From contig OZ374561.1 in NCBI GenBank assembly GCA_977862235.1, positions 2,294,001-2,358,000 on the forward strand: DNA of 64,000 nucleotides, given 5' to 3'. The notes under the pieces are model-generated. The model searched no databases, was not told the DNA's origin, and saw nothing but the letters and a program-made list of their open reading frames with translations. A program made the translations under genes and the position numbers. This document shows positions 1 to 64,000 of the stretch, in pieces. The DNA is from Dudresnaya verticillata (taxonomy: Eukaryota). Numbering within the stretch: the stretch's first letter is position 1; the number at the start of each line of letters is the position of its first letter.

Positions 1-3000
1 AACTACAAAGTATACGCCGACCTGGGCGTAACTGTAGGTACCTTGGCACGTAAACATACTGTCCTCGACACGGGGGCTGGTCCGAATTTCATTCGCATTG
101 ACGACATTCCGCTAGAAGCGCGACCACGGATCGTATCCAAGAGTCTCCCCGTCATATCAGACATTAGCAACAAGGCGATTCAGACCCGGGGTACTATCGA
201 CTTAGTCGTACGTCTCGGACGAAGGGTTGTCAAGTTGGAGTTGATCGTCTGTGAACGGCTCGCTGCGCCGGTCATACTTGGTTGCGACTTTTGCGACCGC
301 TTTGTCGAAGCGATTTATCCGCGGAGTCGCGAGATTGAGTTGGATGACGGGACCCGTGTCCCTTTAACGCACCGCCTGCTGCGCTGGCCCCCGTCGTACC
401 CCCCGTTTCCAACGGAACAAGAGTACGGCACGGCTGAAGGGCGAACGTCGCCCAAGATACGCGTTGCGGAACGGACGATCATCCCGCCGCAGGCGCAAAA
501 GTGGATCTCGGTGACGACCGAGCGAGCAGGGGTCATTACCATCCAACCGTTTGGAACGTTATATGATCGGCAAGCTTTGGCCGTTACTAACAGGGTCGCT
601 CAAGTAGAGCAGAGTGTTCCGGATTCTCGTCGCCAACTTCTCCCCGCGCCCGCAAGCGCTCGTTAAAGGACAAGCCGTCGCTACCGCGTTGCCACATCCC
701 ACAGCAGTGTTCCCCAGTCACATAAGTCTGGCCGATGGCCTAGGTATCACCGAGGAACAGGCAGTGGAGGAGGAGGCGAATCAGGATTTCCGTTTTCAAA
801 CGAATGATGGGGTAACGGCGCAGCCGGATACATTCGCTAAGTCGATCGCAGCAACTGTAGCTAAATCTCCTTCAGTGGACGAGTTGGACCTGAGTCATCT
901 CTCAGCCGAACATCAAGGACGGCTGAAAGAGATGCTGCGCAGGTACTCGTCGATGTGGGACGGTTCATTAGGAGAAACCGCAACCACGGAGCACTATATT
1001 GACCTGCTTCCCGGCTCCAGGCCGATTTCATCCCCACCTTACCGCGCTGACCCAAAACAAAGGCAACTCGCTCAAGCGGAGGTGGATCGCATGTTGCGTC
1101 AGGGGGTTATCGAACCCGCACAATCTCCATGGGCGTCGCCGGTCGTCTTTGTTCCCAAGAAGGACGGTACACTCCGCTTCTGCGTTGACTACCGTCGCTT
1201 GAACGCGGTAACGGTACGAGGTACGTACCCTCTCCCGCGAATCGATGAATGTATTGACAGCCTAGGGGAAGCGAACGTCTTCACCACCCTAGACTGCAAT
1301 AGTGGTTACTGGCAGGTGCCCATCAATCCGCGAGATCGCGACAAGACGGCGTTCACGTGCCATGCCGGGTTGTTCCGCTACAAGCGTATGCCCTTCGGAC
1401 CTACTAACGCACCGGCCACGTTTCAACGGACCCTCGATATCCTGCTTGCTGGTTACAAGTGGCGCTCATGCCTCGTCTACCTTGACGATGTGATCATCTT
1501 CTCGAACGATATCGACAGTCACTTCCGTCATGTTTACGAGATCCTTTCGACCTTGCATCGGGCCGGGGTGACGTTGAAATTAACCAAGTGCGACGTCTTC
1601 ACCCCGACCGTCAACTATCTAGGCCATGTGATACGTCCGGGACGATTAGGAGTAGACCGTACGGTCACAGCCGCGTTACGCGAAGCCAAGCATCCGCGGG
1701 ACCAGAAGGAGTTACGGAGCTTTCTCGGATTGTGCAACGTCTATAGACGGTTTGTATCGCGATACGCGCACGTCGCCGCTCCCCTCAACAAATTGTTGAG
1801 GAAAGAGCAAGACTTCCAGTTACAACCGTTCACCGAGGAGCAAGCTCGGGCATTCAGCACGCTTGTCGAAGCGGTGATTCACCCGCCCATCCTGGCGTTG
1901 CCACAGCAAGGACTACCGTACTCCGTCGATTGTGACGCGAGTGAATACCAAGTTGGCTGCGCACTCTTTCAAACGCAGCCTGACGGCGAACGGAAGCCGC
2001 TTGGCTTCTGGTCACGCTTTTTAACCGCTCCGGAGCGCAACTACTCGGTATCCGAAAAGGAATGCCTAGCAGTAGTCTGGTCGATCACGACGTTGAGACC
2101 GAACCTTCAGATGGAGTCCTTCGTAGTCCATACGGATCATTCGTCGTTGAGGTGGCTCATGGAAATTAGCGACCCCTTGGGACGGTTAATGAGATGGCGC
2201 CTTCGCCTCTCTGAATTCGACTTCGTCGTGAAGTATAAAAAGGGATACTTGAATACTCAGGCAGATGCCCTCTCATGTCTACAGACGAACGGCGAAACTG
2301 TCGAACCAATCGACGATGATATCCCGTGTTACCACGGAAGTTGCGTCGAGGACGAGGATCACTCGTCAGAAGACGGCTACGCTCACGCAGAAAGCGATAT
2401 GTCAAACGCCAAGGGCGAAGTCGATTTCTCCGAACGAGACTTCGAGGAGTTTGACCAGATGTTGGTTACCAGCGCGCCACCGGCGGATGACGTGCTCCTC
2501 TGTCAATTGACGCATGAAGAGTTGGTGCATGCTCAGGGCAGTGAGCAGTACTGCTCCGAGATCCGGAAACGTCTAGACGACGGAGATACCCTACCGTTCG
2601 CAACGGATGAACAGGGACTATTGGTTCGGACCGTCGAGGCCTGACCCCAAGTCGTTGTACCATCCGTGTTACGCGTTCGATTGCTCCATCTCCGGCATCA
2701 GGCTAAATTAGCAGGACATCCCGGAGGGCGGAAGCTGTACCATACGCTTCGACGTGAGTATTATTGGCCGTCTATGTCGGTGGATTGTTACGCGACCGTC
2801 CGCAATTGCGTTACTTGCGCGAAGAACCGGGTACTGATGCGAAAGAACGTGAAGGAGATGAAACTGTTCCCAGCAACCGAGCCTCTCGAGTTTGTGTCCA
2901 TCGATATACTCGGGGAGCTCATACGCACTAAGCGGGGGAACAAGTTCCTACTCGTCATCGTGGACCGCTTCTCGAATCTGGTCCGGACGGTTCCCTTACG

Positions 3001-4580
3001 TAAGATTACGGCATTGGAAATGGCTAGGGCGTTTGTTCGACACTGGGTGTTTTTGTATGGCCCACCCAGGAAGCTGCTGTCCGACAATGGGCCGCAATTT
3101 GTAGCCAAGTTGTTACAGGACGTCTGCCGCATCTTAGGGGTGGAGAATCTCTTCACCACTACGTACCATCCGCAGTGTAACGGCCAGGTGGAACGATTCA
3201 ATCGAACCATCTTCGCCTCCCTGCGTCACTACGTAGCAGACCACCCCAGGGACTGGGATTTGTTCACCGATGCCCTGACGTTCGCGTACAATACGCAACT
3301 GCACTCGTCTACCCACCTCGCTCCATTCGCGCTGGTGCTATCTAAGCCCCCGCGGCCATTTTCGCTGGAAGCGGAGCCGTCGCTTGAAAGCGTGCCCACT
3401 GCCGAACAGTACTACACCAAATGGCGAACCTGGCTGTCCGCATTGATGGGAACCGCTAACGCGTCGATCGCGAAAACGTCGGCGCGTTACAAACGGAACT
3501 TCGATACTCGTCTGAGGAAATCGAAGGAGAACATCGCTGTGGGCGACTTCGCATTCGTGCAGAAGGAATACTTCGCCCGCGGCGGGAGCACCGATCGCTC
3601 AGAGCGCAACCACAAGCTCGCGCCTGTGGCGGATGGACCGTATCGAGTAACTCACGTCGACGAAGGGGCAGTCACCGTCGACAACGGACGTTGAGAACGC
3701 GAACGTTTATCCCGGGACCGCGTGGTATGGGCGCCAACCCCACCAGGGCACCCCGCCCACGCAACCGTGCAACCACCGGGACCACCTCATGTACCGGGGC
3801 CCACAGCCCCCATGTCAACCGACGAAGGAGCAGGAACCCCAGACACGCCACAGGCGGACCCAGTAGGAGACACAGGGGCACCGCGAAGCACGGACGACTC
3901 GCAGGAGCGAATGAATGCAACGCCGCGAAGTCGCGGGTTAGCAGAGCTCTCGCCCTTCGCCGCTAACCCCGACGACGGTGTATCGCAATCCGTCTCCGAA
4001 GAGGAGGAGGGTCCAGGCATCCGTACGCGAATGGGACACGCAACCTCGGCTTCGCCGGCTACCAAGGTAGGTCCCGCTTCGAGCGCATCGACTGACGATG
4101 AGGAAGACCGCGCTAACGCCAAGGACGCCGCTAGAAGCGACGAACCAGTACGCAAAAGCGACAAACCACAACCCGCTACGCAAGCTCTCGGGGCACCGAC
4201 CCAGCGACCCAGAACCACAACCCGCTACGCAAGCGCTCGGGGCACCGACCCAGCGCCTTAGGCGATCAACTCGTCCAGTACGGTTTGCAGAACCGGTGCA
4301 GACGCCCATCACGCAACGAAGTGAACCACCCCAGGCGTTAGAACGGTAGGAGCCCACGTCGACCGTTAGAAGCGCGAAGGAGTACGTTATCGAACGGGTT
4401 GAGTCGCACGCACACGCGGAAGACGGCGAGATCCTCTACCGCGTCAAGTGGTTTGGATACCCCGCTTCAGCGAATACCTGGGAACCAGTGTCCAGTCTAC
4501 CGCGATCGCACGTTGTGCGGTATCACCGTCAGAAGCATACGCGCCTGCCGCCAAACATCGACGACGCGCAACGTGGGTAA
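1..4580 (+). pseudogene. pol: Gypsy pol (aspartic protease, RT, RNase H, integrase, chromodomain), disrupted
   Basis: LDTGAG protease (43-666); frameshift ~612; YLDD RT and DASEY RNase H (614-2644); in-frame TGA 2642-2644; H-H-C-C zinc finger, SDNGPQF, GQVERFN integrase (2666-3694); further frameshifts; chromodomain EYVIERVESH..YRVKWFGYPASANTWEP at ~4377-4580. Confidence 0.95.
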
Positions 4581-5821
4581 CCCTAGTCAGGATGGACGCT
4601 GGAAGCGAAAACACACGCCACATACGGGTTGACGCGGACGTGCACTCGTTACGGACGACGGGGGCGATAATCAACCGGATCAAGGACGATTGGGTCGGCG
4701 ACACGCGAATAGGCAACCCTCTTCGGAGGGGGTCCGTAAGGAAAGAACGGCTGACAGTAGTCAGAAGGCATGGAGGGCGCACGCACCACACGAAATCGGG
4801 CAACAAACGAAATGGAAAAGTTTAATGTGAAAACAATAACGCGAAGGCACCAGCCAGGCGGCGCCCAACAAACGAGAACCTGACAAGTGTGTGCCCCAGC
4901 ACTACGAGCGCCCACGAGGCAACCAAGCACGGACGCGACAGACCGTCTCCGACGTCCTCGCCCAGGCGCGCCACCCACGGCCAAGTCCGAAACGCGTCAC
5001 CCTTACGGGCGGCGCGCGCAACCGCCTCGAGGGTGACGCCCGCGAACGTCAACGACGTGTCTCAAGTCGACAAAGGGTCGCCCGCAAACACGAGAGAAGA
5101 AACAGTCGTCGAAGACGGAGTTGGGCTACGCTTCGTGCACGACGCGCTAATCGCAAAAATGACTCCGCCGCTGGGCGCGGCAGCCGCACCCAGGAGTCGC
5201 AGGAAACGCGTCCAACGCGCGGCGCATCGCCAACCTAACCGTCCCCGACGCTAACCCAACATGCCCTACGTCAAGGACGAAAAGCCAACCGACGAACGGC
5301 TCCCCAACTACATATTCGCTTAACAAGCGGAATCACGATTTGAACAAAACGACTAAGTCGGCATAAGAACATGGGCCCTCCCAAAAGGGCTTACGCTACT
5401 GTAGCGGCATCAAGAAATGGGAAAAAACGCCATCAAGGCGGCACCGCCCCAAGCTTTTACGCAAACGCTACTACAGCGGACAGACAACAACAACATCTAT
5501 ACGAACAGGACCCGTCGGCTACCTACTATTCGCTATCGCAGCGCTCTACATCAAGCGGACACATAAGCAACTACGTTTGACAACGATCAAGTTTATTCGG
5601 GCTTCACAAGCGAGGGTAATCCCCGTGCCCGTATGACCTTCCACTACGACCTACGTCGTGAGACACGGCACTAACCGTCTATGACGTATGAATCCCTCGC
5701 TCGCCGTCCGGCTGCGGGGCAAGCGGAGCGACACTACACGCACTCTCGCGCCCACGAACCGTTCTTAACGATCCAACAACGCTACGGCTTTTCCGTCGCA
5801 GACGGCCCAGATGGGGCATCA

Positions 5822-8063
5822 TCACCGACGCCACTGGCGGATTCTCTTAACGCCTCTTCTTAGAGGTCGTCTTCCGTCACCGACGGTGCGCTCGGAGCAG
5901 GGGCAGGGACGGACCGCAATGGGACCCGCCACAGCCACTGCTGTCGAAGTCGCGACATCCGCCACTGGCGACGCACCTGGCTCACAATCCGCCTTAGGCG
6001 ACGACTGTTCGTCAACCGCCATAGGCGCAGCGTCAGAGTCATTATCCGCCTTAGGCGCTACACCAGGAAGCTCACTTGCCTCTGGCGGCGGAGCATCCTC
6101 AACCGCCTTGGGCGAAGTCGACGGCCCCGGCACCTCCGGTGACGGGACCGCATTAACCGCCAAAGGCGTTGAACGATCAACATCCGTCATCGACGAAGAG
6201 GCCACTGGAGCCTGCGAAACCGCCGTAGGCGCTGCCACCGCACTCGCCTTTAGCGAACTTTTGTTAACAACGTCAGTGGACGCAATGGCGGACGAACCCG
6301 CACAACCCGCCTTATGTGACAAAGGCTTTTTTGCCACTCCGTCATTAGACGCCGCACCTTCATCGTTAGACGGCATGGTCGCAACGACGGTCGACGCCGG
6401 AACCGCAGCAACGCTGGGATGCAGAGCAGCCAGTAGCGAGTGCCCGAGGGGCGTCGTGGATGACCCGCCCGACCCGTCAGTGACGACATCGGTGGCTCGC
6501 AAGAATGCGAGCACCGTGCGGCGCTGCTCCTCAGTCCACTCGGGCACTGCAGGAGGGCAATTCGCACCGTCAGCAACGTTGGACAAGCCGCCTTGAGGCG
6601 TAACTGCAGACGCAAACTCGCCATGGGCGCAGCCATGATGGCATCACCATCACCGTCATTGACGAGCGCCGAGAGATCCAATGGCACAACAGCCGACGGT
6701 CCTACCGCCGCTGGCGAAATCTTCGTCGGAGCTGTCGCCCCCGCAGTAAGCTCAACCGCCATAGGCGTAATGACGTCCGTCCCAGACGGGTTAACCGGTC
6801 CGCCGTTAGCGTGGAACGCATCCTCCTCCGCCATCAAGGCGCTCAAGTGGGGTGGGAAATCCCCCGCAAAGTCGCAATTCTTGCGCAACCCACGAGGGTG
6901 GTTCGCTGCCGTGAAGCGGTCCGTACGACGATGACTCTCAGCGATGTTCTCCGTCGTAAGACGTTTGGTCCACGGGTTGTACCACACCCAATCGCCACAG
7001 GCGGAATGATTTCTACTCTTCGCGTAACGCGGACGGTTTGCCTTACTGCGCCTGTTTCCCGGCTGCACAGCAGCCGGGTCGTCCCAGTTGACGTTATCCG
7101 CCACATGGCGTAGATCCCAGAACTCTTGGCAGTTCTTGGCACCGCCCAGCACTTCAGCCAAGTCAAGCCCGCCAAGGAGTCTAACTACGCGTGGCGGCAC
7201 ACAATAGAGCCGGAAGGTGTCATACACCTCCCACATCCATGCGTAAGTTACGTTGATGACCCACTCGGTGAAAAACACGATCCAACATCGGGAGTATGGA
7301 TCCGTCCGCAACTCGGAGCCAATATACGTGACACACGGAGGCAATTCAGCCGCAAAGCCCTCGCAGACCTCAAAGTCCCGCCACAACGGCGGGACGCGAA
7401 TGAAGCAATGCGGCAACTTTCCCGCTCAATGCGATCGACTTGCATATCTTGATACGGCACAAAAACGCCTTTACGGCAGCGCGTTTCGCACTCCCAACGG
7501 ACGCAGCGCTCCCAATAGAAGGTGCCCGTCCTATGCAAGTATCGGAAATCCGCTTTCGAGCGTACATCAAGGAGGTTAGCCTCCTGAAGCACCCGCGGCT
7601 CAGCCGAAACAGCCACATGGCTTAGTGACAACGTCCCAAGACGGTCCCCATACCCAACCTCGCCATTTGTGCGGTACTGCCCTGCGTCAAATTCAAAGAC
7701 GGTGGGCGTCAATACCGACCCCGGATAGCGGGTAAACCGCGGATACACGTCAACGACGAAACGCGCATGTGCATCTGCACGCGTCTGACCGGGGGCAATA
7801 CGCAGCCAACCTCTCGGAATGGCGCACCAATGGCGCCACTCGTTCGTCCACACGACGGCCAGGGGCAACTCCCCTGGCAAAAATCCGCTCACAGCGTAAT
7901 TGGTGATGAGGTCCTCGTGCCGCAGGGCCTCCTGGTCGAACCAGGGGGCCCGCGAGAATAATCGCGTATTGTTGCGGCGAGTCCTCCCGACAAAGTCGAA
8001 TGGTGACGGATACACCGGCGCCGCCGAAGGCGCAGCCACTTGTATGACATTGAACTGTGCCAT
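5822..8063 (-). pseudogene. Antisense orphan ORF of Gypsy A (frameshifted into 7248-8063, 6250-7416, 5822-6586)
   Basis: Colinear peptide similarity to 58790-60472 (GFLPGELPL/GFLPGDLPL, YRTNGE, CEGF, WEVYDTFR/WELYDTYR, CGDWVWYNPW/CGDWAWFDPW). Confidence 0.85.
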
Positions 8064-8523
8064 TACGTCTGAGACGTTGAGTAATCACGCGCCACTGGCG
8101 GAATTCACACGATACGTCAACGACGGTTTTGGACTCCGAAGTCGAGTCAACTACGCCAAAGGCGGAAGCAAACAAAAAACACGTTAACGACGCTGGACGA
8201 AACAACGCCGAAGGCGGACCTCAAAGAAACGCCCTAGGCGATAAGCGCACGCACGCGTGCATTCATACGACGTCAAAGACGGGGTTTCACGCACGCCACT
8301 GGCGAAGTTAGTCAACGACACGTCTTCGACCGGAATTGTTCCTACGCGAAGGGCGGGGGAAACTGCACCGGAGTCTTTGACGGGGCTCACCCAACGCCAA
8401 GGGCGGGTAAATGCAGACGCGAAGGCGCGGGTGACCGATGCGAACGGCGCTGGAAGACGGCGCGGACGCAGGAAGGCGGGCAGGCTGAAACAAATGGACG
8501 TGTTCGCGTTTTCGGAGGGGACG

Positions 8524-9425
8524 TGTAGTGCCAGGGGGGTCCCCATTTTCGCTTTCAAGCGGGTTGATATGCAGCGTCTACCGACGGACGACCGCCAACG
8601 GTGCGCTCAACCCGCCCGCGGCGCAAACACGTCACCGACGCATGCCGCTGGCCACTTGGGCCAGAACGGCTCGCTTGGCGTGCAGACCGCACGCCTGAAC
8701 CCGGGCACTGTACGGCGCCACACGTACGCGCATGGTGCAGTGGCAGGAACGTTCGCTGTAAGCGTGGCCCGAATCCGGATCCAATCGGGATCCCACATCG
8801 GGATCAGACATCGGGATTAAGAGGTGTAAGGCACGCGCCTGTAAGCCTGGCGCATCCGCATGGCTGGCCCGAATCCGGACTGGATCGGGATTGGTGCGGA
8901 TCGATATCGCACGCGCCATGGGGCGCATGCGGCTGTAAGGAAGTAATCCACGTGTAGGTGTAAGGACTCGAGCGGGGAAGCTACGCGTGATCTGTCAGGA
9001 GCGCGGCTGCATAACGGACGGATCTGTCCGACGCGCCTCGGGACAACACGTGTCCCGAGTTCCCGCGTAGCGCGTACACACGCGTCGCCGCCGCTAGGTA
9101 ATTCTATACTTAGTTGATCCGTCTCAGACGTCACAGTAAACCCCGGCAAGCCGGCGTTGGTCCAGACTTCCCCGCGCGTACCCTACCGCTGCCTACGGCT
9201 AAGCGTCTACCTCCCGTGCTTCCACGTCTCTACCCGTCTTCGATGTGTTCCCTTTTTGTTCTCGTTTGTTCTTCCTTTCCGCCTCGGGCGTTTACAGTCC
9301 GCCCAAGGCGAGTCAACTGCTCTACCACAAGTCGCCCAAGGCGAGCCTACTCACCGCCACGGGCGTCGCTACCCACCGAGCCCCGAACTCCTCGGCGGTG
9401 TTCCGTCTAGGACGTTTGCACTACA
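8524..9425 (+). repeat. 3' LTR of Gypsy A
   Basis: TG...CA ends with 8-bp inverted termini, preceded by PPT; closely similar to 22450-23361. Confidence 0.95.
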
Positions 9426-14111: not shown

Positions 14112-14726
14112 TGTGGTGCAATTCACCGGTGCTCATTTGCCTCAAATCGCGGACTCCCCGCCAGCAATGCACTTGGGGACTGCCCCTGTAAGGCTCCCGG
14201 CCTGTAAGTCCTGCGCGCCGGCGGCAACGGGTGGCAGATTATGGTGGCGGATCTTCGCTACTGTACGCACTGTCAGCCACCCTTAATTTTAGTTAATTTT
14301 AGTTAATCCCTTTTCGCGTGTCACGAATCTCCACATGGCACGCTCCCTTCCCCACTTCATTTGTGGCGCACCCGTGTGTACATAGTATATTAGAGCTAGG
14401 GCGCGCCCTCATTCAGTAAACAAGCCAAGCTCGGGCTCTACGACACACACCTCCCTACCCTTGACCGACATCTTCGTCGTCAGGAGGGACTCCAGTGCGT
14501 GCGTACCCCTTCTTCATCATACAGAACCCTGTTTTCCCCTTTTTCCTTTGCTTTTCCGCTATTTTAGGGTTCCTCCCTTTTTCTTTCGTCTCGTGGCGTT
14601 CTACAGTCGCGCTACGGGGCTACTCCCCACGCTCTACCACACCACCCCCTACTACCGCTACCCGCGGGTCCCGAACGCCCGAGGTGTGTCCTCTGTTGTT
14701 GTTTTCAGCAGTGGATTTGCACCACA
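14112..14726 (+). repeat. 5' LTR of element C
   Basis: TGTGGTGCAA...TTGCACCACA. Confidence 0.97.
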
Positions 14727-15265
14727 TTTCGTCTCCCGACCTAGAAGTTCGGAAATTCCGATTGGCTACGTTATCTACGCTACGGAACTACCGTTCTTCA
14801 CATTCTACCTTCTACATATATCGCAGAATTTCTGCCATGCCACTCCGTCGACAGCCGTCGTCGGCAAGGCCCGCCCCATCGCAGCCCGGAGCTGCTGTGG
14901 TTACGCGAGCTCGTGTGCAGGCATTTCCTGCGGTCCAAGCCGCCTTTTCAGCAATGCCCAATGAGGGGGTTCCTTTTGTACCGCCCTCGGTGGAGATAGT
15001 ACCTCCTGACCCAGCCGGGGCTCTCCCGACTGGCCAGGTCCAAGGCGGGCAGCCGGCATCTCCGCCTTCGCTGCCCATTCCACCATCGCCGATTTCGGCA
15101 TCACTTCCGCCTATTCGGGAATGGGGTGTCATCCCAAGTCATTCGGGATACACCCGTCACCACGCGGATATCCGCTCTGCCGTCTGGTCCGAACAATGTA
15201 CATGGCCACCACAGAGGAACTCCTAATATCCTTATCCGCCCCCTGCGGCGTGTCTTTCTCCATCC

Positions 15266-16822
15266 ATGCGAGGGTCTGAGACAGTCTCGTTACCTTCGGG
15301 AGACTCGACCTGGTGCTCAGCCACCTCATCACGGACCTTCGGGTCATCACAGTCGTCAAGCGACAATTTCAGCAGGTGCTATTCACCTTCAGAGTCGTCA
15401 ATAGACGCCTCCATGAGGTCATCCTCCTGTTCATCCTTGTGGAGTTCCACATCTTCGGACCTGTCCAACCCGTGGTCCGACGAAGAATCAGAGATAATCT
15501 CGTTAGCCGGCTGCCGCCGAGGTGAGCATCTCGACGCGTACGCGACGCACCGCGAAAAACCTGAGGATTACCTCATGACGACTCAACCGGATTTCCCGGA
15601 GTACACTGGGCATGGGCTATGCAGCCAAGACCCTAAACGGTGCGAGACCACCATGGTCCCAGTGGGAATCAGATGGAGACCTGCTTCAGAAACCGGGGAA
15701 AGACCCCTTGTACCTTCGCACGTTGAACTTCAACCTTCCCAGTCACAACCTGCGGAAGTCGGCACTGCCATTGAAATGGCAACTGACATTCCGGCTCATG
15801 GCTATGAGGAAATCCTCCCATATCTCGCCCCTCGAGTCCTCACGCGGAGAATCACGAGGCATTCCTCTGTACTGACAAGGGACTATGCCCTACGAAGACC
15901 CTGGAGAAGACTTCCACAGCGTGCTAAGCGGGGAATCCGCATCATGCGTGGACGGAATGCTGCGGTCTACGCCGATTTCGGCTTATCAAAGGTGTCAGTG
16001 ACACGCTCTGTCACAGTGATAGACATTTGTTCTGACCCGAACTTTATTCGGCAGTCGGAGCTACAACGGGTACTCCTGAAAGAAGAAGCAACAGTGCGGT
16101 ACGGTCCGCTGCTAGACTACCGAGACGAACGCGGAAAGCCGCTGAATACCTTCGGGATTACCAGCCTTCATGTGGCCATCGGTAACGTCAATACAGAAGT
16201 TGACTTCATAGTTGTTGGAGATCTCTCCGTGCCTGCCGTATTCGGCGCTGACTTTTGTGACGATTTTGTCGAGGCCATATGGCCTGCCCGGAGAAGTGTC
16301 GAGTTAGCTTCTGGGCTCTCCGTTCCAATAGTTCGGAGAATGCACAAACGCGTGCTTCGAGGACCGCCCCTTCCAAAATATCAGGAGTACTCTCGACTTC
16401 GCGGTCGTGTATCGCCTAAGATGCGAGTCACCCGTCCCGTTTGGCTGCGTCCGCAAACGACGACCTGGGTCGAAGTGACGGCAAAGCGTCATGGTATTCA
16501 AGTGGTAATCCCACAGTCAAGTTTCCAGAAAAAGAACTCGTGCGCTGTTCACGCGGGCGTTGTTCAGGTTGAACCTGACAAACCCTTCCTGGTGCTTGTC
16601 ACCAATTTCGGTCAGCTACCACAGAGCGTTTCTCCTCAGCAAAGCATTGGCAAACTCGCGCCACATCCCAGCATACGGTGGTCCATATCTCGTTCCCTTG
16701 CGGACCCGTTCGACGAAATGGGAATTCCCAATGTTAGAGTTCGCCTTTCTGACGGTTCTACACTCGACGGTTTTGACTACCGGAGCATCATTGTGGGAAA
16801 GCCACTTGATACTGGGAATTAG
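15266..16822 (+). CDS. Divergent Gypsy protease-region protein (probably catalytically dead)
   Basis: VIDICSDPNFI aligns with VLDTGAGPNFI and FGADFCDDFVEAIWP with LGCDFCDRFVEAIYP of ORF 43-666; DTG triad altered; start uncertain. Confidence 0.7.
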   Translation: MRGSETVSLPSGDSTWCSATSSRTFGSSQSSSDNFSRCYSPSESSIDASMRSSSCSSLWSSTSSDLSNPWSDEESEIISLAGCRRGEHLDAYATHREKPEDYLMTTQPDFPEYTGHGLCSQDPKRCETTMVPVGIRWRPASETGERPLVPSHVELQPSQSQPAEVGTAIEMATDIPAHGYEEILPYLAPRVLTRRITRHSSVLTRDYALRRPWRRLPQRAKRGIRIMRGRNAAVYADFGLSKVSVTRSVTVIDICSDPNFIRQSELQRVLLKEEATVRYGPLLDYRDERGKPLNTFGITSLHVAIGNVNTEVDFIVVGDLSVPAVFGADFCDDFVEAIWPARRSVELASGLSVPIVRRMHKRVLRGPPLPKYQEYSRLRGRVSPKMRVTRPVWLRPQTTTWVEVTAKRHGIQVVIPQSSFQKKNSCAVHAGVVQVEPDKPFLVLVTNFGQLPQSVSPQQSIGKLAPHPSIRWSISRSLADPFDEMGIPNVRVRLSDGSTLDGFDYRSIIVGKPLDTGN

Positions 16823-18321
16823 TCATGCCGGACAGAGGTATCCTGGCAACGGCAGTGTGGTCTGAGTCCACAATTATTGGGACTTTCAGATAGTCCCAAC
16901 CAAAACCAGAGCGATTTCGCTACTTTGTTTACTTGGGGTGGTCCCCAACTTGTTCCTGCTCCCGCTTCTCAAGCAGCAGCAGAAATACATATTGTGGATG
17001 GCCACGATAATCCTGACGAGGAATCCTCGAGTGACACATCATCGCGGAAATCCGCAAGCACCTGGGGACAAACCCTTTTCGCAGCCTCTGAATCAGAGCA
17101 ATCAAGCGGAAATTGTTCCGCAGTCTGCGGTGAGCGGGGGAAAGTTCCCATTCCGAAAACGTCGATAGTGCGAACGGGATTTCCCGAGGATAAAAGCGTT
17201 TGCGATGGCACTTCCCTACGGGATTACCCGACAAAGTTGGCAGCCAAAGTGGGCAATTGTCATCTGCAGATGAGTTCCGTGATGAAGTAGAATGGGCTCC
17301 TCGTGTTAGCCAATTGCAATTGGGGGAATCCCCTGTGATCCTTACTCCCGAGCCCAACCATGCTCCTCGCGATCACCAAGGCAAGGTGGATGCTTGCCGG
17401 CAGTCGGCTTTTCCTGGACGTGGTCGCAGAATTGCGAAGCGCCGGATGGGTCTACAGATCAGGGACTGCTCTCCAGGCTCGGGGAAAGGATTGGCTGCTG
17501 CGTTGGCCCCAAACATTGGAGCCAATCAGATCCCAGGATTTGGCAACAGTCACCCTTGACCCCGGCGTGCGCACCATCGTGCGCCCCACCGATGAGACGT
17601 CGCATTTCGGCTAAGTCCCAGACGGGCTACGCGAAAAACGGATATCCGTAGATGCTGCGACTAGCCGGCAACGGCCAGGTCAGCGAGCACCTTCACATGA
17701 TAGGGAGGTACCCTGAGGAGGCCGATGCGGCATATCGTTGTCGGTTTTCCAACGGCTTCGCCTGTTCGGTTACCGGATAAGCCCGTTTCATCGCGACGCA
17801 TGCGGCTTCATCCGCCAAAACTTCGCCCTCAAATGGAATCATTCCATACTTTCGCTTTACCTGCCGTGTGCAGTAGAGGAGCTCATTTAGCGAGGAAGCC
17901 ACATATCAGCGGGTCTACGCTGCGCTACGAAGTTCATCGCTCCAGCGGAAATCCGCAGTCAAGAAACAGCGCAACAAGTCGCCTCCGATAACTTCACCCC
18001 GCGGGGCCCCGCCCATCCGGATGGCTTCGTGCGCAATTGCACCACCCAGGGCGTGATTTCGCAACAACACCGCGGATGGCCCGCAAACCGCTCACCCCTG
18101 TTCCGGTGCAGCTTCTGGAATATCCAGTCAAGTCCCCACTACGCGGGACTCCGCTCTCCAGGAACCGCCGTAAGGCGCTTTCAGAAGAAGCCGCCGAATT
18201 TCGGCAACTCTGGCGTCGCCCGCATCGCGGCATGACACGCTGCAAGAGGATCTCCCTCACCCACCTGGGCCCGATGTCGCGCTGATACAAGCGCCAGGCC
18301 ATAATACGGACACCCCGCAAC

Positions 18322-18505
18322 ACGACGAATATGTCATTGAAAAAGTGGTAAGCCACGGATATTTTGATACAGAACTTCTGTTTGAGATCAAGTGGTACGG
18401 ATGTCCGTTCGCGCCGCAGACATGGAAACCCATTCACAACTTGCCGCGGAGTCAAACCGCATCCTATCATAACATGACGCGGCTTTGTGTACCCGCTACG
18501 ATGAG
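18322..18505 (+). pseudogene. Chromodomain remnant
   Basis: DEYVIEKVVSHGYFDTELLFEIKWYG matches DEYVIEKVVNHSYDNTQLLFEVKWYG of element E. Confidence 0.85.
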
Positions 18506-21486
18506 TGTGGCCATGACGGGATAAATCCACGGAGATACTCATGCAGGGCATCTGCTCAGTTCGAATCGTTGCGGACTTAGCCGCATTGGGGAGATAGACG
18601 AGCAACTGCAATGTACCAGTCGTCCAGCGACTCGGCGACTGTACGCCAAGATTGTGACTGCGATTGGCTTCCGTTTAGCCAAAAATAATTTTGGCCAATC
18701 AGGCGCCGGAATTTCGGCAGCAGTCACCTTCGGTGGTGTCGAGCTCGATATAAGTCGCTCCACCGACACAAAGTCGAATTTCGACTAAGTGCCCGACTGG
18801 GTATGCCCGAAACGGAATTCCGTAATGACTACCCCGAGCCACCAACGACATGGAGCATCCGTCCCCCCCATGGATTGGGCGACGCCTTTGCGCAGGTCGT
18901 ACAAGAGAAGTGGAATCCCACATCGCGGAACGTTCGCGTCAAAACCGACGCGACGCTCCCTACCAATCTAATGTGCGGCGCCCCGCAGAACCCATTAACG
19001 AAATCATGTGGGGCACACCCCTACACAGCCTACGGCAAACCGCTGCTGCCTCCCCCAAGCTGTCTGCGGCTAAATCGAAAAAGGCAACCCTGTTCAAAAC
19101 GGAATTCCGTAACAGCTAATCTGAGCCATTAATGGCCTTGAGCATTCACACACCCCAACGGTCAGGGAATGCCCCCGCGCCCGTCATTCGCAAAAGTGGT
19201 ACCCCACACGACAGGAAGTTCACGCCCAAGTCCATTGGCATCAATTGGAATTGCTAGTGCGCGGCATTCCACAAGCGCTCCCAATGCAGTTACCTGCTGA
19301 GGCACAATTGGCGTGGTCAAACCTCAACGAGAAGCCGCTGCCATAGTGCGGACAGTCCTGGCAAGTTACGCACTGTACGCCAAGATTGCGAGTTCGATTG
19401 GCTGCCGTTTGCCCAAAATTCAATTTATCCAATCAGGTGCCACCATCTTGGCAGTAGCGACCCTTGGGCGAATCCTACTTCGCCGACTCGCTTCCTCGAC
19501 ACAAAGTCGGATTTCGACTAACCCATTATCGGGTTATGCCAAAAACGGATACCCGTAGTTGCTGCCTCAAGCCGACGGAGGCCAGGTCGGTGACCATCCC
19601 GACACAATTGGGAAACTACCTTAGCAGGAAAAAACGGGATTGCGTGCATGGGTTTCAATCGGCATGCGCCTGTTTGTTACCACCCGGAGCACCCGGGTCA
19701 TGCCCGATCGAGAATGACACAATGTGTCGACACACGTGACCACGTCATGCGGGTGCTCCGCTGGGCTCTAAATGGAATCATTCCATGGATTCTCCCACAA
19801 ACGCCTGGGCATTTGGAGACATCCCTCGGCTCGGTTTCCATACCTCTAAGGCGCTCCTTCTGGCGTTCCCCACGGGAAACCGTTTTCATACTACTCAGAA
19901 ACTCCTGTTGGCCTATTTGCCTTTCATTAATCGCGATACCGGCGTTTTTGAAGTTCGCAACGAGTCTGCAAACGAGAATTCTCGTTGCTCAGCGTAGCCG
20001 AAACCCGCTTTGCACAGAGCCTGCTTCGTCCATGACAAACGCGGTGTTTTACGGGTTTGGCCCGATAGGCCCATGCTGGCCCAGACGGTCCCAACGACCC
20101 CTGTCAAGACGAAGTCGTCATGAAGAAGAAAACTTCTTTGAAACACCTACCAAGCAGTGTATCTACAATACGCTTCCCGGGATTCCGGTTCTAAGCCCGA
20201 AGAACCTTGGCTTGTTGGTTTCAACTTGCAAATAATTGCAGAATGCTGCTCTAGGGACGTTAAATCTACGCAAACAACGGGCTATGGAAATGAAAATGTT
20301 GTATTCAACTGTACTTTAAGTCTGGCGTACGCGCCTTGAGCTGCTGCATTTTTATGGCCGTGAAATGGGGAATACCCCAATGCATTTGACCGCGGACGCC
20401 GTTTCGCAACAACTGCAATGCGGAATTGCCGCCTTTTCCCAACCGCGCCCGGTTCGGCATCGGGAAGACCGAGTATTGGGGAACGCCCCATGCTGAAGTC
20501 TATTCGTGGGTTTCCACTTTTGCAGCTGCCATTCTGCGGTGACATCCGCTTGTTCGCCCGCACCTGTATTTGCCGTATTCGGCTGTTTGCTGTTTTATCC
20601 CCCGCGTTGGGGCCCCGGATGCCCCGGTCGACTACAGATGATGCCGTTTTTCGGCTGTGAATGCAGTGACAGGCGACAACGTCGAAGTGGCAGTGACTCT
20701 GAATGCTCTGAACTTGTCGATTTTCGACTTAGTGCTCTGTTAGAGTGTGCAGTACTGCACAAAGGGGCAATGTCTCATACACGGCCCATCTATGAAACAA
20801 ATGGGAAAAGGGCCGCAAGAGACCGGAAGAGGGGCCGCGGCAACCCCTGAGTAGCCGAAAGGTTATCACGGTTACTGTAATGTGCTTACAGCGGTCCGGA
20901 CCGGGCGGTCCACTGGAGGACCAATCGGGGCAAGATAAGGACCAGTCGGTCCCCTTTGTGGACCGATTTGAGGAAACTGGTTGCGCATGGAAAGGAAGGT
21001 TTCATAAGCACGAGTGCAACGAGAGGGTGTGCGGTACAAGCCGTCTACCAGCCTACACCATCTGATGATGCCGACAATAAGTTTAGAAGTCGTATTGCGA
21101 CATGGGAAAATGGCACTATTGCAGTATGTGCCTGCTGAGAGACACGAGGCAATATTAATAGGTATACCCACATGGTGTTGGGCATGTGCATCCAAGCACA
21201 CGATGCAAAGCCGGGAACCCCACCCCCTGAAATACCGAGGGTCGCGCCAGTTGCTCCTAAGCTCCGAACGCGTATTGCGGTTCATCCGCTTGCAGTACTC
21301 ATATCGCCATGATGACCAACGCCGGAAGCAGACAATCTGCAAATTCGCGAACCGGACGGGGAAGTCCCCCATTTTCGAAAGGGCCCCCTATTTACTCATA
21401 GGGGCGAGCTCAGACAGCGGAAATCCGCATTCAAGATGGATTTAGTGGGTTGGGCTCGCAGGGGCTCACCTCTTAACGGGGGGAGA

Positions 21487-22102
21487 TGTGGTGCAATTCA
21501 CCGGTGCTCATTTGCCTCAAATCGCGGACTCCCCGCCAGCAATGCACTTGGGGACTGCCCCTGTAAGGCGCCCGGCCTATAAGTCCTGCGCGCCGGCGGC
21601 AACGGATGGCAGATAATGGTGGCGGATCTTCGCTTCTGTATGCACTGTCAGCCACCCTTAATTTTAGTTAATTTTAGTTAATCCCTTTTCGCGTGTCACG
21701 AATCTCCACATGGCACGCTCCCTTCCCCACTTCATTTGTGGCGCACGCGTGTGTACATAGTATATTCGAGCTAGGGGCGCGCCCTCATTCAGTAAACAAG
21801 CCAAGCTCGGGCTCTACGACACACACCTCCCTACCCTTGACCGACATCTTCGTCGTCAGGAGGGACTCCAGTGCGTGCGTACCCCTTCTTCATCATACAG
21901 AACCCTGTTTTCCCCTTTTTCCTTTGCTTTTCCGACATTTTAGGGTTCCTCCCTTTTTCTTTCGTCTCGTGGCTTTTTACAGTCGCGCTACGGGGCTACT
22001 CCCCACGCTCTACCACACCACCCCCTACTACCGCTACCCGCGGGTCCCGAACGCCCGAGGTGTGTCCTCTGTTGTTGTTTTCAGCAGTGGATTTGCACCA
22101 CA
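21487..22102 (+). repeat. 3' LTR of element C
   Basis: Near-identical to 14112-14726, preceded by PPT. Confidence 0.97.
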
Positions 22103-22449: not shown

Positions 22450-23361
22450 TGTAGTGCCAGGGGGGTCCCCCATTTTCGCTTTCAAGCGGGTTGATATGAA
22501 GCGTCTACCGACGGACGACCGCCAACGGCGCGCTCAACCCGCCCGCGGCGCAAACACGTCACCGACGCATGCCGCTGGCCACTTGGGCCAGAACGGCTCG
22601 CTTGGCGTGCAGACCGCACGCCTGAACCCGGGGCACTGTACGGCGCCACGCGTGCGCGCGTGGCGCAGTGGCAGGAACGTTCGCTGTAAGCATGGCCCGA
22701 ATCCGGATCCAATCGGGATCCCACATCGGGATCCGACATCGGGATTAGGTTGTGTAAGGCCCGCGCCTGTAAGCCTGGCGCATCCGCATCGCTGGCCCGA
22801 ATCCGGACTGGATCGGGATTGGTGCGAATCAAGATCGCACAAGCCATGAGGCGCATACGGCTGTAAGGAAATAGTCCACGTGTAGGTGTAAGGACTCGGA
22901 CGGGGACGCTACGCGTGATCTGTCAGGAGCGCGGCTGCATGACGGACGGATCTGTCAGACGCGCCTCGGGACAACACGTGTCCCGAGTTCCCGCGTTACA
23001 CGTACATCCGCGTCGCCGCCGCTAGGTAGTCCTGTACTTAGTTGATCCGTCTCAGACGTCACAGTAAACCCCGGCAAGCCGGCCTTGGTCCAGACTTCCC
23101 CGTTCCGCACGCGCGTACCCTACCGCTGCCTACGGCTAAGCGTCTACCCCCGTGCTTCCACGTCTCTACCCGTCCTCGACGTGTTCACTTTCTGTTTTCT
23201 TTTGTTCTTCTTTTCCGCCAAGGGCGTTTACAGTCCGCCCAAGGCGAGTCAACCGCTCTACCACCAGACGCCCACGGCGAGGCCATTCATCGCCGCAGGC
23301 GTCGCTACCCACCGAGCCCCGAACTGCTCGGCGGTGTTTCGTCATCGACGTTTGCACTACA
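22450..23361 (+). repeat. Solo LTR of Gypsy A family
   Basis: TGTAGTGC...GCACTACA, TSD CTATG at 22445-22449 and 23362-23366. Confidence 0.95.
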
Positions 23362-57862: not shown

Positions 57863-58634
57863 TGTGGTGCAATCCACTCGGTAGAATTGAGGGTGCACCT
57901 CAGGCGGTTCGGGGGCCTGGCGGTAGCAGGTGAGGTAGTAGCGGTAGAGCAGGGGAGTAGCCCCGTAGTGCGCCTGTAAAACACTACAAGGCCGAGAAAG
58001 GGGGTTACCCTAGAAAGGAAGAGAAAAAAAGGAGAAATAAGAGAAAAACAGGATTCTGTACGATGAAAAAGGGTAGCGGATGTACTGGAGTCCAGCCTAG
58101 AGAGGGAGTCGATAGGGTAGGAGGGTACGTCTCGCTGGGCCCAAGCTTAGCCGTTTATTGTATGAGGGCGCACCTCAGGGCCTTATTATGCTATGTAGGA
58201 GGCGGGTGCCTTGGTGGCGGATTAAGGTAAGGGAAGGGGGTGCGCCACTTGGCATTACGTGGCGCGCGCAATCCTATAATTATCTACTAAATATCAACTG
58301 TCAGCCTAGTGGTAGTGTGGCTGACGGTGTGCGCCAAGGGGGCGCACGTGTGCACATGTACGCGTTGTTGCGTTGCGGGGCCATCCTTGCTGGCAGAGGG
58401 CGCCGCATACTGTCAGGCCGGGCGCCTTACAGAGGCAACTCCCCATTAGCATTGCTGGTGCGTGCGCGTGGTGCCAGAGCTCATTACAGAAATTGGCTCT
58501 GAGCTCAATCACCCGCACAGCGGTTGATCCGCACGAAACGGTCGCTGTGCGTCCGTCGTCCGCGGTCGCGTGAGCCGCGGGTGACGGTATTATAAAGAAT
58601 TCTTCAGCAGGGCGCCAAGGCGATTTGCGCCACA
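57863..58634 (-). repeat. 3' LTR of Gypsy E
   Basis: TGTGGTGCAA...TTGCGCCACA followed by TCTCCCCCCCGTT (PPT on minus strand); similar to element C LTR. Confidence 0.92.
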
Positions 58635-58789
58635 TCTCCCCCCCGTTAAGCGGCGAGTACCCGCACGAGCCCACACGGTTTCGGTCAAGCTCACGCACTT
58701 TGCGACCTGGTGTCGGACTTTTGGTGGCATATTGCCTTTCGTAACTGCGGAATTCCCGCGTGTTGGTCTTGCGTTGGGCGTTTAACACG

Positions 58790-60472
58790 ATGCCGCCGAA
58801 CTTCTCGCCAGCGGAGTTAGACCGCGTGCTGCTCCATGCACCGTAGAGTTCTGCATTATACCCTACCCCTGCCGACTTCGAGGGCAAAACGCCGTGACAC
58901 GACATCATCGAGTTTGCCAACGCGCCGTGGATGTTCCACACGAACCTAGGCAAGCACGACTTGATCGAGCAGTACGTTTCTGCGGATGGGTTCCTGCCTG
59001 GGGACCTTCCCCTTCGCGTCTTGCGGACACCTGACTGGCGCCGGCACGGAGCGATTCGTCCGGAATGGATCCGGCGCCATGGCGGTGAGGACGTACGGAA
59101 AGCGCGACTGCGGTATGTCCGCTTGGTGTTACAGCACTTGACGCGTACGCCGGGTCGTGAGGTCATCCCCCATGGGTATTGGTTAGACCTTGGCGTATAC
59201 CGCACAAATGGGGAAATCCCCTATGCTGACGCCCTCGAGTATCTCCCTATCCCGCATGAGTGGGATGGTGTGGAGCCTCGTGTCCGTCAGTCAGCCCTCT
59301 TGATGGGCGTGCAGTTGCGTGCGGAATTCCGCTTTGTGCGGAAGCGCGATAATAACGCATACTGGGATAAGGTGCGTTGGGAGCGGCGCGCCCGTTCCCG
59401 TTTGGGCTTCCTAGTGCCGTACCCAAATGTCGAAATCGACGCAATACGTCGCAACTACCAGGAGAGGTGCTACGTGCGCCTGCCGGTCCCACAATGGGGC
59501 TTGGTAGAGAGTTGTGAGGGATTCCTCGTTGAGTTGGCGCCGGCGGTGAGCTACACCATGTCCTCTGTTGGGGGCTACCCGCAATCGGGACTATGGGTCG
59601 TCTATTACACGGAATTCGTGGCGAAGACGGCGGTTCAGTGGCTATGGGAACTCTACGACACGTACCGTATGTAGTACGTGTCGCCCACAGTCGTGGAGTT
59701 CTTCGCCTCGTTGGACTTGAAGATGGTCCTCGGTGGGATAAACAATGAAGCGGAATTCCGCGTTTTGCTGGGGTTCTACGCCCAGGTGGACTGGGATCGT
59801 GACGAGCAGCGCGTGCCGTTGCGCAATAATAAGAGGAGCTCCTCATCGACCAACTTCTCTCCTGGTCGCCGCCATCCGTCATGCGGCGACTGGGCCTGGT
59901 TCGACCCGTGGTCGAGGACCTTCGTTTCTGCGGACCGCGCCGCTTGGTTGCGCGACAATCCGCGTTCGATGCCCCCCGGGCAGCCGCGGGGTTATCTATT
60001 AGATCCCGAGGCTGGCGGCGGCAACGTGTCGGACCGAGATGGGGAATCCTCCGACGTAGGCAGCAATGGGGAAATCCCCGAAGATGATGCAATGACGATC
60101 GATGCGTCTGTGGGGGAAGACTGTCCGGCCGTGCCATCTCCTACTACCGCTGATGCCCCGGTCGCGGCGACGGAAGTGGCGACTGACGCGGGTGGGTGCA
60201 GCAGCGGCGGCGCTGTCATAGCGAGCGTGCCGATCGTTCGGCCGCCCGCTATTCGGACGCCGTCACCTGTCCCGGAAAGCCAATCTCGTGCACGGCGCGT
60301 GCGACTGAGTTTCAGTCAGCGCATTGCCGTAATCGGCTTTTTGCGTAGGATGGGAATTCCCGAGAGTGCCATCCGCGGCAGCGACGAGGAGCTCCTCGAG
60401 GTCGCTGTCGATAAGGGATTTAGTTTGGATGACGAGGATGAGGCAGGCCCAAGCGGGCCTGCCGATATCTAG
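58790..60472 (+). pseudogene. Antisense orphan ORF of Gypsy E (single frame, three in-frame stops)
   Basis: ATG 58790 in frame with 58931-59674 and 59678-60472; LYPTPADFEGKT aligns with VYPSPFDFVGRT of element A. Confidence 0.85.
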
Positions 60473-62180
60473 TCGAGTGGCGACATATGGCGTGGGGCAA
60501 CCGACCCTGTGGGACTAGCCCATGCGTTGTAGTAGGGAGAGCGTCGCCATAATCAGGACTTATTAAAAGTTTGCCTGTTTGTTTTCTTGCTTACCATAAT
60601 GCGGCGAGTCGCTCTTAGGGGAGGTTCCCTGAGTGGTGGTAAAGCGCGGTGATTCGCATACGTAGATGTCGGCGAGCGCGGGGGTCGCAATATGCCATCA
60701 TTGAGGCATACGCCGCGTAGTGTGGAAGTCCACAAATCGTAAGCGGCTTGCACGTGAGTGTGCTTGACCACTTGGCGTGCGGTTGCTCAAGGCCTTTGGC
60801 GGCTTAGAGCGGTAGGTACGGATTTCCGTTCTGGGCATGGCTCGCAATTCCCACTTAGTCGTGAACGACTTGGGGGAGGAGGTGCGGCGTGATTGCGGTC
60901 GTCCGCTAGGGTGGCCCTCCGCGTGGATACGCGGCAGATGATTGGTGCGGAATACGCCGGCACCATGATTGTCCAATGGATGTCCATAGAGTGGCGCATT
61001 GCACGTGACCTGCATGCTCACTGCCACGGGTACAGTAGACCAAAAGTGTACTGTGGTCCAGCCACATTAATTGGTGATACAGAAGTCTGCTATCGCGTGC
61101 GTTTGCCTATGTCGCATTCTGACCCGGTTAACCGGACGCATGTGCGTAAGCGTCTACCCGAGTAGCTGGGTGATAGGGCGATCCAGCTCGTTTAGCTAAG
61201 TGGAATGCCACGCGAGATCATGGCATGCCCACTGTAGGGGTGCCGACTGGCCTGTGCCCGAGCTCTTGGTCGTGTGAGATACCACTTTTGTCAAACACTT
61301 GCAGTTGTAGGTGCCGCGTGAGCACGCGCAGGCAGAGGCACTCCCCTAGCGTTGGGGAGTGGTACCCCAGTCCGTCGGTGGCTCTTGTTTAGTGTTTACG
61401 GAATTCCGTTCAGTAGAGTTGCCTTTGCAGCGTGAGTTGTAGGCGACGGGGAGGTGGCGGCCTTTGTAGGGGTGTTCCCCAATCGTTGGGCATAAGAGGG
61501 GTTCCGTGGGACACCACATTAGAGTGAGGTTTAGGTGTAGGTATCCCCCTTTTCATGGGGGAGCGGATGCCAAAGGCCATCGACTGCTCAGCCCCGTGAT
61601 TACGGAATTCCGTTGTAAGGATGGCAGCTTTGGTAGGCTCCGCCGCAGACGGCTTGGAGACGGCCATAGCGTACGACTGCGCTCTGCTACAGTCCACGCG
61701 GAGGAGTTCCCCTTTGGATTCGCTACAAAGGCGGTATGGAGCGCCTCATGTCATGGGGGTCGTGAGCGTCGCGTTGTCGTTGACGCGAACGCCCTGCGAT
61801 GCGGAATTCCGCTTTTTGTGTACAGCCTACGCCACGGCGTTCCCCTTCGGGTGGGGGAACGGTATCTCAAAGCCGTTGGTGGCTAGGAACAATCGCTACG
61901 GAATCCCGTTTTGTGTATGCTCGAGTCATTAACTTAGTCGTATTCGACTTTGGGAGCGACGATGGCGACCAGTTGCGGTAGACCGCTAGGATGAGTGGGT
62001 GCGCATAACGAGCATCTGATTGGTGCGGCGATAATTAAAATAGCGTCTGGCCAATCAGGTGCTATACCGTGGCGTACAGTACCTCCGTCGTGCGCGCAGC
62101 AACCACTGTGGCATCGACTCCTGGGCCCGACTCTTCAATGTGGTGTCTCCACTTCATTTGGACCTGGTAGCGTTTGGGGG

Positions 62181-63998
62181 TTAGCCCACCATTGCCTTGG
62201 TGATGGTGGAGGGGACGCCGAGACGTCTCCTCTTGCAATATGAGATAACTTGACTCCGCGGTAGATGTTGTATGGGCTCCCATGTATTTTGCGAAGACGG
62301 ATAGCCGTACCATTTGACTTCAAACAGAAGTTGTGTATTATCATAACTGTGGTTCACCACTTTTTCGATGACATACTCGTCACGCTGCGGAATGTCGGCA
62401 TGGTGTCGGTGCCTTGATGACACGGTGTCATCAGGCCGAGGGTCCGATTGTGACACGCGTGGAGCGGCGGTAGCTATACGGCGACTCCGTCTGGGGCTTG
62501 GCGTGCCAATGGTCGCGGTTGTGACTTGATTGCGGTCTGCCGCTTCTGATCCGAGGATCCGGCTCACGAGAGGCCGCGTAGGGATTTCCCTAATGGTGTC
62601 GTCAAACGTGACGTTCTTTCTTGGTGGGCGTGGAGAATCCTCCTGGTGGTTTTCTTGCGTTCTAGACGCGTCTGGTGACACATCGCGTGTCTCTCCTTCA
62701 GGAGCGGGGCCCTTCCCGTTAGCGGGTAGGGTTTCAGCCTGACTATGGGGCCGTGACTCATCCACCTGATTGATGTCAGCCGAGTTTGCGGCAGGTGTTA
62801 GGCGATGGGTGTGTAGTGTCCCGGATGGGTGTGGCTCGAGGTCTTCCGCTATCCGACGAATAGGCGAGCCTTTGCGGAGTATATCCCGCGTCGCTGCTTC
62901 TTGTGGAGTACTCTCCTGGGAGGCGGTTATGCCGGTATTCTACGTGGGTTGCCGTTGACGAGGAGTTTCCTCCGAGTGGGGGTCGTCGGGCGATATCGCT
63001 GGTGCCTTTGGTGAGGTATCATGAGGAATTCCCTCTATTGTACCGTTGACGGCCTTGGTGCCTTCTGAGACAGCGTGCGGTTGATCCGCGATGGGGTGTC
63101 CATTTGCGCGGGCGCCGTTCGCTGGCCTGGATTCCGGCTCCAAACTTGCGTGAGCAGGAGTTGGAGTGGGAGCGGCGGCGTCAGCGCGTGTGGTGGGTGG
63201 TGAGTGAATTGCGGTAGTCCGCGTGCGGACGCCAGCGGTGCGTCTGGGTACTACGGGCGGCGGTAAATCCGCCAATCCGCGATCATTGCGTGGCTGTAGG
63301 GCTGGCGCCACAGCATGAAAAGTAATTGGGACATTTTCCCCGTGAGACACAGTAGCTCCGTCAGCGCGCTGCATTCGAGTATGATCGTTATTGAGATCGT
63401 CCGTTGGCGGTAATTCCGCATCTGTCAGGTCTGCCGTCCCTTCGGCGTTGGCTTGGTTGGTCGCGTCCCTTGGTGGGGCGGGCGCCAACACGACTCTGTC
63501 GCGGGAAATCCGCTCGTATTCAGGCCCGTCCTTCTCGACGGTGACCGTCTTGTCATTTGCGTCACTCACGCGATAGGGGCCGTCGGCGATAGGCGCCAGT
63601 TTTTGTTTTGGGGTATCCTTCCCATAGTACTCCTTACGTACGTAGACGTAGGAGTCTACTCCGATGACGTTGCGTGAGGGACGTACCCTGTTATCGAAAT
63701 TGCGTTTGTATCGCGCTTGTGTCTGTTCAACGCCTTTGGTGGCAGTTGACAGTAGTCCTGTGAGCCAGGACTGCCATTTGGCGTGGAATGTAGCCGAACT
63801 CGGCACTGGTTCCAGTGAGGGATGTGCCTCGACGCTTAGAGCGGGTGGAGGTCTGGAAAGTATCAGTTGAAAGGGGGCCAGGTTCGTGGTAGAATGAACT
63901 TGCGTATTGTACGCGTAGGTGATGGCATCTGAGAATAAATCCCATTCACGCGGATGGTCCGCAACGTAGTGCAGTAGCGCGGCGCGCATTGTATGCAC
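62181..63998 (-). pseudogene. pol: Integrase C-terminus, linker and chromodomain of Gypsy E
   Basis: YAYNTQVHSTT, ADGPYRV, in-frame stop at 62940, FEVKWYGYPSSQNTWEP. Confidence 0.93.
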
Positions 63999-64000
63999 CG

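Follow-up and report, generated by a model that had tools for sequence, protein, structure and literature searches.

In the stretch of Dudresnaya verticillata DNA analysed here (64,000 nucleotides, hereafter the window), a Gypsy retrotransposon (element A) carries, in antisense orientation and between its pol and 3′ LTR, an open reading frame (ORF) that is real, selected and element-borne, and that is undescribed within the literature searched. Our preferred reading, to which we assign a probability of about 0.42, is that it is a decayed accessory gene, encoded antisense in a chromodomain Gypsy and belonging to a large unnamed protein family, and that its product would bind the element's own inverted repeats in trans and thereby promote expression or replication. 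A preliminary description of this DNA had drawn attention to the ORF; it did not notice the arrays of inverted repeats, each of a family-specific type, that extend along element A and along the second ORF-bearing element, E.

An antisense ORF between pol and the 3′ LTR

Nested eukaryotic transposons make up the 64-kb window (Table 1). The pol of element A is broken and its 5′ end lies beyond the window. Its chromodomain-like end resembles a segment of element E that matches Pfam Chromo (E = 4e-12), and 4.0 kb separates it from the 3′ LTR, which opens with TGTAG after a purine tract (GGAGGGGA, 8514-8521). Element C, a recent insertion with LTRs that terminate in inverted repeats (TGTGGTGCAA...TTGCACCACA), retains a gag-protease region and a chromodomain; domain, translated and sensitive six-frame searches found in it no match to RT, to the integrase core or to the antisense ORF. 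In element D (50100-57860) a purine tract ~170 bp beyond pol abuts the LTR end of E, so E may have inserted at the 3′ LTR junction of D. Interrupted by E, element D may be without a long 3′ region and ORF.

Also in the window are a 932-aa plus-strand ORF of a LINE (46988-49786), which encodes an endonuclease and an RT domain, and, within the transposon nest, a telomere-like TTTAGGG tract (24068-24140). A 420-aa minus-strand frame with no Pfam match (12870-14132), interrupted by element C, ends in SHSLRIGAHT, a motif that we take to be typical of tyrosine recombinases (DIRS or Crypton-like). Two long Cys/His-rich ORFs of 738 and 403 aa on the plus strand (39551-43074), also with no Pfam match, are possibly a broken transposase-like gene.

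As first reported, the ORF of element A is on the minus strand; it runs from an ATG at 8063 to a last stop at 5822 and is split over three frames by two frameshifts, near 7420 and near 6620. Its start had been placed ~460 bp inside the LTR boundary: the distance holds (461 bp from the edge at 8524), with the start internal to that edge and outside the LTR itself. The C-terminal helix already proposed is present in the third frame, followed by a low-complexity, palindrome-dense tail. The spacer between the ORF start and the LTR is likely an antisense promoter or leader. No TATA-like match was found in this spacer, Rfam gave no match over 3600-9500, and no tandem arrays were found between 4213 and 8771.

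Element E carries a homologue that is antisense to its minus-strand integrase and chromodomain. Position and orientation are the same in both copies in the window (2/2), antisense and between pol and the 3′ LTR, and a sensitive six-frame search of the window, element C included, found no third copy. When the two ORFs are compared by tblastn, 215 aa align at 39.5% identity (E = 6e-43) and 267 aa at 31% (E = 4e-37). Smith-Waterman scores are 384 and 338, the highest value among 300 shuffles for each being 62, and all the motifs that the preliminary description listed as colinear with element E are present in the alignment. Over 382 codon pairs, amino-acid identity is 39.5%, nucleotide identity at codon positions 1, 2 and 3 is 55, 62 and 31%, dN is 0.62 and synonymous sites are saturated (pS 0.75). 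Retention of ~40% protein identity with saturated synonymous sites indicates that selection acted on the protein. The integrases of A and E show a pattern like that of the ORF (69, 75 and 37%), and therefore purifying selection acted on the ORF over the same span as on pol. The ORF of A and E was under past purifying selection, which bears out the earlier suggestion; where a dN/dS near 1 with no intact copies had been envisaged as the opposing outcome, we found purifying selection here and intact copies elsewhere. Chance or a frame artefact as the origin of the ORF is ruled out by the shuffle scores and the codon-position pattern. The DNA flanking the ORFs gave no alignment between the two elements, and their LTRs share no blastn similarity.

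Table 1. Coordinates of the principal features, in positions of the window.
Feature	Position	Strand	Remarks
Element A pol, Gypsy (protease region, RT, RNase H, integrase)	1..3694	+	Pfam RVT_1, RT_RNaseH, Integrase_H2C2, rve
A-type repeats, 68 perfect CGYY-N3-RRCG	110..9414	.	dispersed through A, 7.2 per kb
Element A chromodomain-like pol end	4419..4583	+	tblastx 45% over 55 aa vs element E segment
A antisense ORF piece 3, first helix of C-terminal module, then tail	5822..6621	-	helix at 6526-6497
A antisense ORF piece 2, C-terminal half of core and start of linker	6622..7425	-	7/7 near-invariant residues
A antisense ORF piece 1, N-terminal half of core, 214 aa	7422..8063	-	11/12 near-invariant residues of this half kept
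Spacer, ORF start to 3′ LTR of A, 460 bp	8064..8523	-	densest palindrome cluster
Element A 3′ LTR (TG...CA)	8524..9425	+	92% to solo LTR
Element C, non-autonomous relative of E	14112..22102	+	LTRs 98% identical, duplication CCCAG
Solo LTR, A family	22450..23361	+	target-site duplication CTATG
Element D long pol	53453-57676		Pfam
Element E 3′ part (integrase tail, chromodomain, antisense ORF, LTR)	57864..64000	-	Pfam; LTR end at 57864
Antisense ORF homologue in E	58790..60472	+	560 codons, one frame, three internal stops

The protein family and its predicted structure

The protein had been called an orphan, a label that did not survive profile searches. A full profile scan (clusters at 50% identity, with the best 150 of 1,643 listed) returned 1,643 related clusters at E ≤ 0.001, 786 at 1e-10 and 191 at 1e-30. 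Earlier profiles had reached 4 clusters from three rows and 31 proteins from eight rows, and a single-sequence word search found no homologues. The named family members, three among 21 proteins looked up, are all from the red alga Agarophyton chilense, whose accessions are CAN8067188.1, CAN8068179.1 and CAN8074799.1. Intact multi-copy versions are 637–692 aa long. Clusters contain near-identical intact copies (three of 637 aa, two of 692 aa and four of 648 aa) together with many truncated ones, as expected for a transposon gene. Median pairwise identity in the core is 31% among 61 long members. The family appears to be linked to LTR elements through the two copies in the window. Scans of viral, metagenome and prokaryote contigs found no homologues; four metagenome motif loci were rejected as motif-only matches, and locus L003 as an off-frame match inside a bacterial permease-like gene.

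Consistent with the earlier failure to recognise a domain, neither the ORF pieces of the window nor 58 long homologues matched any Pfam family above its cut-off (including TRP28 PF04195, Smc and DUF1985/DUF287), nor did Pfam provide a match to a described accessory family. PHROGs and NCBIfam gave nothing over cut-off for the family, and the PDB, searched by sequence or profile, gave weak or chance matches only. Neither the family nor the repeats are described in the literature searched (including the available text of PMC6431247 and PMC12477816), a scope to which Repbase and subscription journals do not belong; Repbase may annotate the ORF.

Members of the family have a ~380-aa core, then a disordered linker, then a small two-helix module. 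Near-invariant residues in 61 rows (P0028 numbering) are P92, W93, W128, D178, R183, E187, L195, F225, R226, E242, R243, R246, E283, G287, Y298, W312, Y332, L357 and G358, with 19/19 kept in E and 18/19 in A. The preliminary description had emphasised retained Trp, Cys and Gly motifs: tryptophans and glycines are among the near-invariant residues; the cysteines are not conserved, that of CEGF occurring in 9/61 family rows and that of CGDW in 4/61. The two-helix module was detected in 20/54 held-out homologues at 5 bits or more (best shuffle −0.4). The structure model predicts two helices in it, of which element A clearly retains only the first. The Pfam family Ish1, one of the HeH/SAP/Ish1-like helical modules, matches the module weakly, in 2/9 segments (best E 0.002; 18.9 bits, below the cut-off of 26.6). 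Hydropathy over a 19-residue window exceeds 1.8 in 4/61 members (median 1.35), and none of 10 sequences examined has a hydrophobic N-terminus. Judged by sequence, the core is soluble and most family members lack a membrane-like segment.

Our first structure model, from 3 rows, had a pLDDT of 29. A model from 25 rows has a pLDDT of at least 70 over 277/547 residues, with most of the core between 70 and 90; residues 164-188 and 219-245, which are rich in invariant residues, are of low confidence. With the whole 547-aa model as query, Foldseek returned nothing at E ≤ 0.001 from the PDB and BFVD, and a VIA structural search returned no Z of 5 or more (best Z 4.3, unspecific, in a list dominated by the C-terminal helices). 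Misses with the whole predicted model as query would not amount to a new fold.

Family-specific inverted repeats

Perfect 4-bp inverted repeats occur at ~7 per kb in each element family (A; E and C), and each family has a type peculiar to it. Those of the E type, RNGG-N4/5-CCNY (a pattern defined post hoc, from C and E), number 46 in the E part of the window (7.5 per kb) and 56 in C. In elements A, C, D and E, respectively, A-type sites occur 68, 0, 0 and 1 times and E-type sites 5, 56, 5 and 46 times, with the E type nearly absent from the rest of the window too. An unbiased spaced-palindrome scan ranked CGCC-N3-GGCG and CGTC-N3-GACG top in A. For the former, the window has 41 matches where 2.3 would be expected, and 31 of these lie within A. 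The density of these two main types rises from 2 per kb in pol to ~20 per kb in the spacer before the ORF, whose 460 bp hold nine CGYC-N3-GRCG sites.

The two arms of a site go together. In A, CGCC pairs with GGCG 31 times and CGTC with GACG 22 times, with one mixed site, and CGYY-N3-RRCG is perfect in 68 cases versus imperfect in 9. Such coupling favours a paired structure over independent half-sites, and the absence of G-T/G-U wobble variants is a slight pointer to DNA. Pairing in the A repeats stops at 4 bp, and the loops are diverse. The solo LTR of the A family retains the palindrome arms with altered loops: relative to the LTR of A, arms differ at 1/72 positions and loops at 8/27 (Fisher p = 1e-4, in a test that took in only sites perfect in A). 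Between C and E there is one double compensatory change, at 18910. Site counts are above the highest value given by 200 synonymous-codon shuffles for 5/6 coding segments of A and 2/2 of E, and this excess rules out a protein-driven origin of the palindromes. The conserved peptide AEFR in E is encoded twice by a perfect E-type palindrome (59322 and 59751), so protein and site constraints overlap. The xPxA linker imprint of A was strong in only 1/52 outside homologues scored, and the peptide-imprint test was uninformative.

A diverged LTR on the minus strand (45568-46081), 70-82% identical to that of A, carries a few A-type palindromes, and in the LINE inverted repeats at short spacers are not in excess. 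In element D, perfect 4-bp inverted repeats with spacers of 4-7 reach a twofold excess, and no stem dominates. The region 28727-45270, with PIF1 helicase and Ulp1 protease ORFs, is another transposon with its own palindrome array, in which GACA-N4-TGTC occurs ~20 times, often inside a longer GAGACAT..ATGTCTC. Given the excess in D and the separate palindrome in the unrelated region 33001-45500, the presence of short inverted repeats is not confined to elements that bear the ORF.

Candidate function and relation to known systems

The orientation of the ORF means that it needs an antisense transcript of its own. By analogy with Grande gene 23, this would very probably be a separate transcript from the 3′ LTR or the spacer. 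The Arg/Trp/Tyr-rich core and the two-helix module of the product would probably bind nucleic acid. We propose more tentatively that the candidate ligand is the family's own mini-hairpin or palindrome. The outcome could be VANC-like, with anti-silencing at the DNA, or Rev-like, with handling of RNA; the two are not separable here. Weighing against a specific link, element C has the full density of E-type sites and no ORF, a combination compatible with a cis signal for any trans factor, including Gag. A bolder proposal, which we regard as unlikely, is one of self-recognition in red-algal Gypsy, in which ~7 mini-hairpins per kb, spread over the entire element and its coding regions, would serve as a family barcode read by an antisense-encoded, new-fold protein that protects or mobilises its own family, with non-autonomous elements such as C parasitising the system through the barcode they have kept.

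The alternative that fares best, a real possibility that we nonetheless place below even odds and close to our preferred reading, accepts the ORF as a true accessory gene and assigns the repeats to another reader (Gag, RT, integrase or a host factor) or to reverse transcription, in which they would arise; the protein would then be without site specificity, as an enzyme or a general RNA-silencing suppressor. Element C keeps the sites and the gag-protease region and not the ORF, as such a reader would allow, and the sites extend from one end of the element to the other, pol not excepted, in the manner that a packaging mark might. The diffuse excess in D also fits, and the invariant acidic, basic and Tyr residues (D/E/R/Y) of the protein could form a catalytic site. 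Against a purely mutational origin of the repeats, however, stand the fixed stem class and loop length of each family, with conserved arms and variable loops, and D, which is without a dominant motif, may also be without the long 3′ region and the ORF.

It is improbable that the ORF is cargo, whether as a host gene that was captured or as a portion of a nested DNA transposon, perhaps PAG1 of red-algal Plavaka elements, even though the available text of 10.1101/2025.02.11.637652 reports red-algal PAG genes moving among TE families and gives PAG1 no known domain. The ORF keeps the same position and orientation in A and E despite unlike LTRs and non-aligning flanks, its divergence is comparable to that of the integrase, and in the ORF lists and translations no transposase or PAG2/PAG3-type gene was noticed beside the two copies. 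An Env-like or cell-to-cell movement protein is highly improbable: env in retroviruses occupies the same location, but the ORF here is antisense, a hydrophobic N-terminus is lacking from the 10 sequences and high hydropathy is confined to the 4/61 members noted above, and cysteines are not conserved, although a soluble movement protein would still be compatible with these features.

Returning to our preferred reading, an antisense accessory protein that binds its element's repeats, its parts have counterparts in several known systems. Plant Retand aORFs and maize Grande gene 23 are described in the available text of PMC11963269 and PMC7264820 as antisense, non-Env ORFs between pol and the 3′ LTR with a proposed regulatory role, and these sources leave open what antisense ORFs do in LTR retrotransposons. 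Element A resembles them in its long pol–3′ LTR region with an antisense non-Env ORF. As described there, Retand and Grande are non-chromovirus elements of flowering plants, mostly with the TRP28 (PF04195) domain, whereas the family here has no Pfam match. Unlike the Retand lineage, its host elements bear chromodomains, an assignment made by chromodomain (Pfam Chromo in E, the 45% identical segment in A). The family here also has red-algal relatives and dispersed inverted repeats, in contrast to the tandem arrays reported for Retand and Grande.

The same two sources (PMC11963269 and PMC7264820) also summarise HBZ, APH-2, Rev and Tat, which are antisense and accessory proteins of retroviruses. 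As far as those summaries go, the likeness lies in an antisense gene driven from the 3′ end and in a trans-acting protein that reads cis elements of its own genome, here by analogy. The protein described here is much larger than these and gave no sequence or fold match in the searches above, and its candidate sites occur by the dozen along the whole element, as opposed to one retroviral response element in those accounts. The Plavaka genes PAG1-3, in the available text of 10.1101/2025.02.11.637652, are likewise accessory genes of red-algal transposons; PAG3 adjoins inverted-repeat arrays and is a proposed binder of them, and PAG1 is described as without a known domain. Unlike the present ORF, the PAG genes are on DNA transposons, and the domains of PAG2 and PAG3 (methylase/SET and ParB/oxygenase) were not detected here.

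The closest working analogy, which is not a family match, would be VANC, the anti-silencing accessory protein of VANDAL transposons that brings about hypomethylation, for which the available text of PMC5735166 reports demonstrated binding to a motif in non-coding tandem repeats. On that description, both are accessory proteins with conserved and variable regions, and both elements are dense in their own short family-specific motif, with C- and T-type variants. VANC, however, has DUF1985/DUF287 and is carried by Mutator-like DNA transposons, whereas the family here is in an LTR retrotransposon and has no Pfam match; and VANC motifs are non-coding tandem repeats, whereas the candidate binding sites here are paired inverted repeats that also lie in coding DNA (pol and the ORF). 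Were the link between protein and repeats true, an LTR retrotransposon would have a system of the VANC or Rev kind that uses a code based on structure. Should the link fail, these elements are still under an unexplained constraint, the barcode of covarying inverted repeats. Because the candidate ligand differs between families and the protein belongs to a large conserved family with intact members, a swap test of specificity is possible. Antisense ORFs at this location are already known from Retand and Grande; the family-specific repeat arrays are new here.
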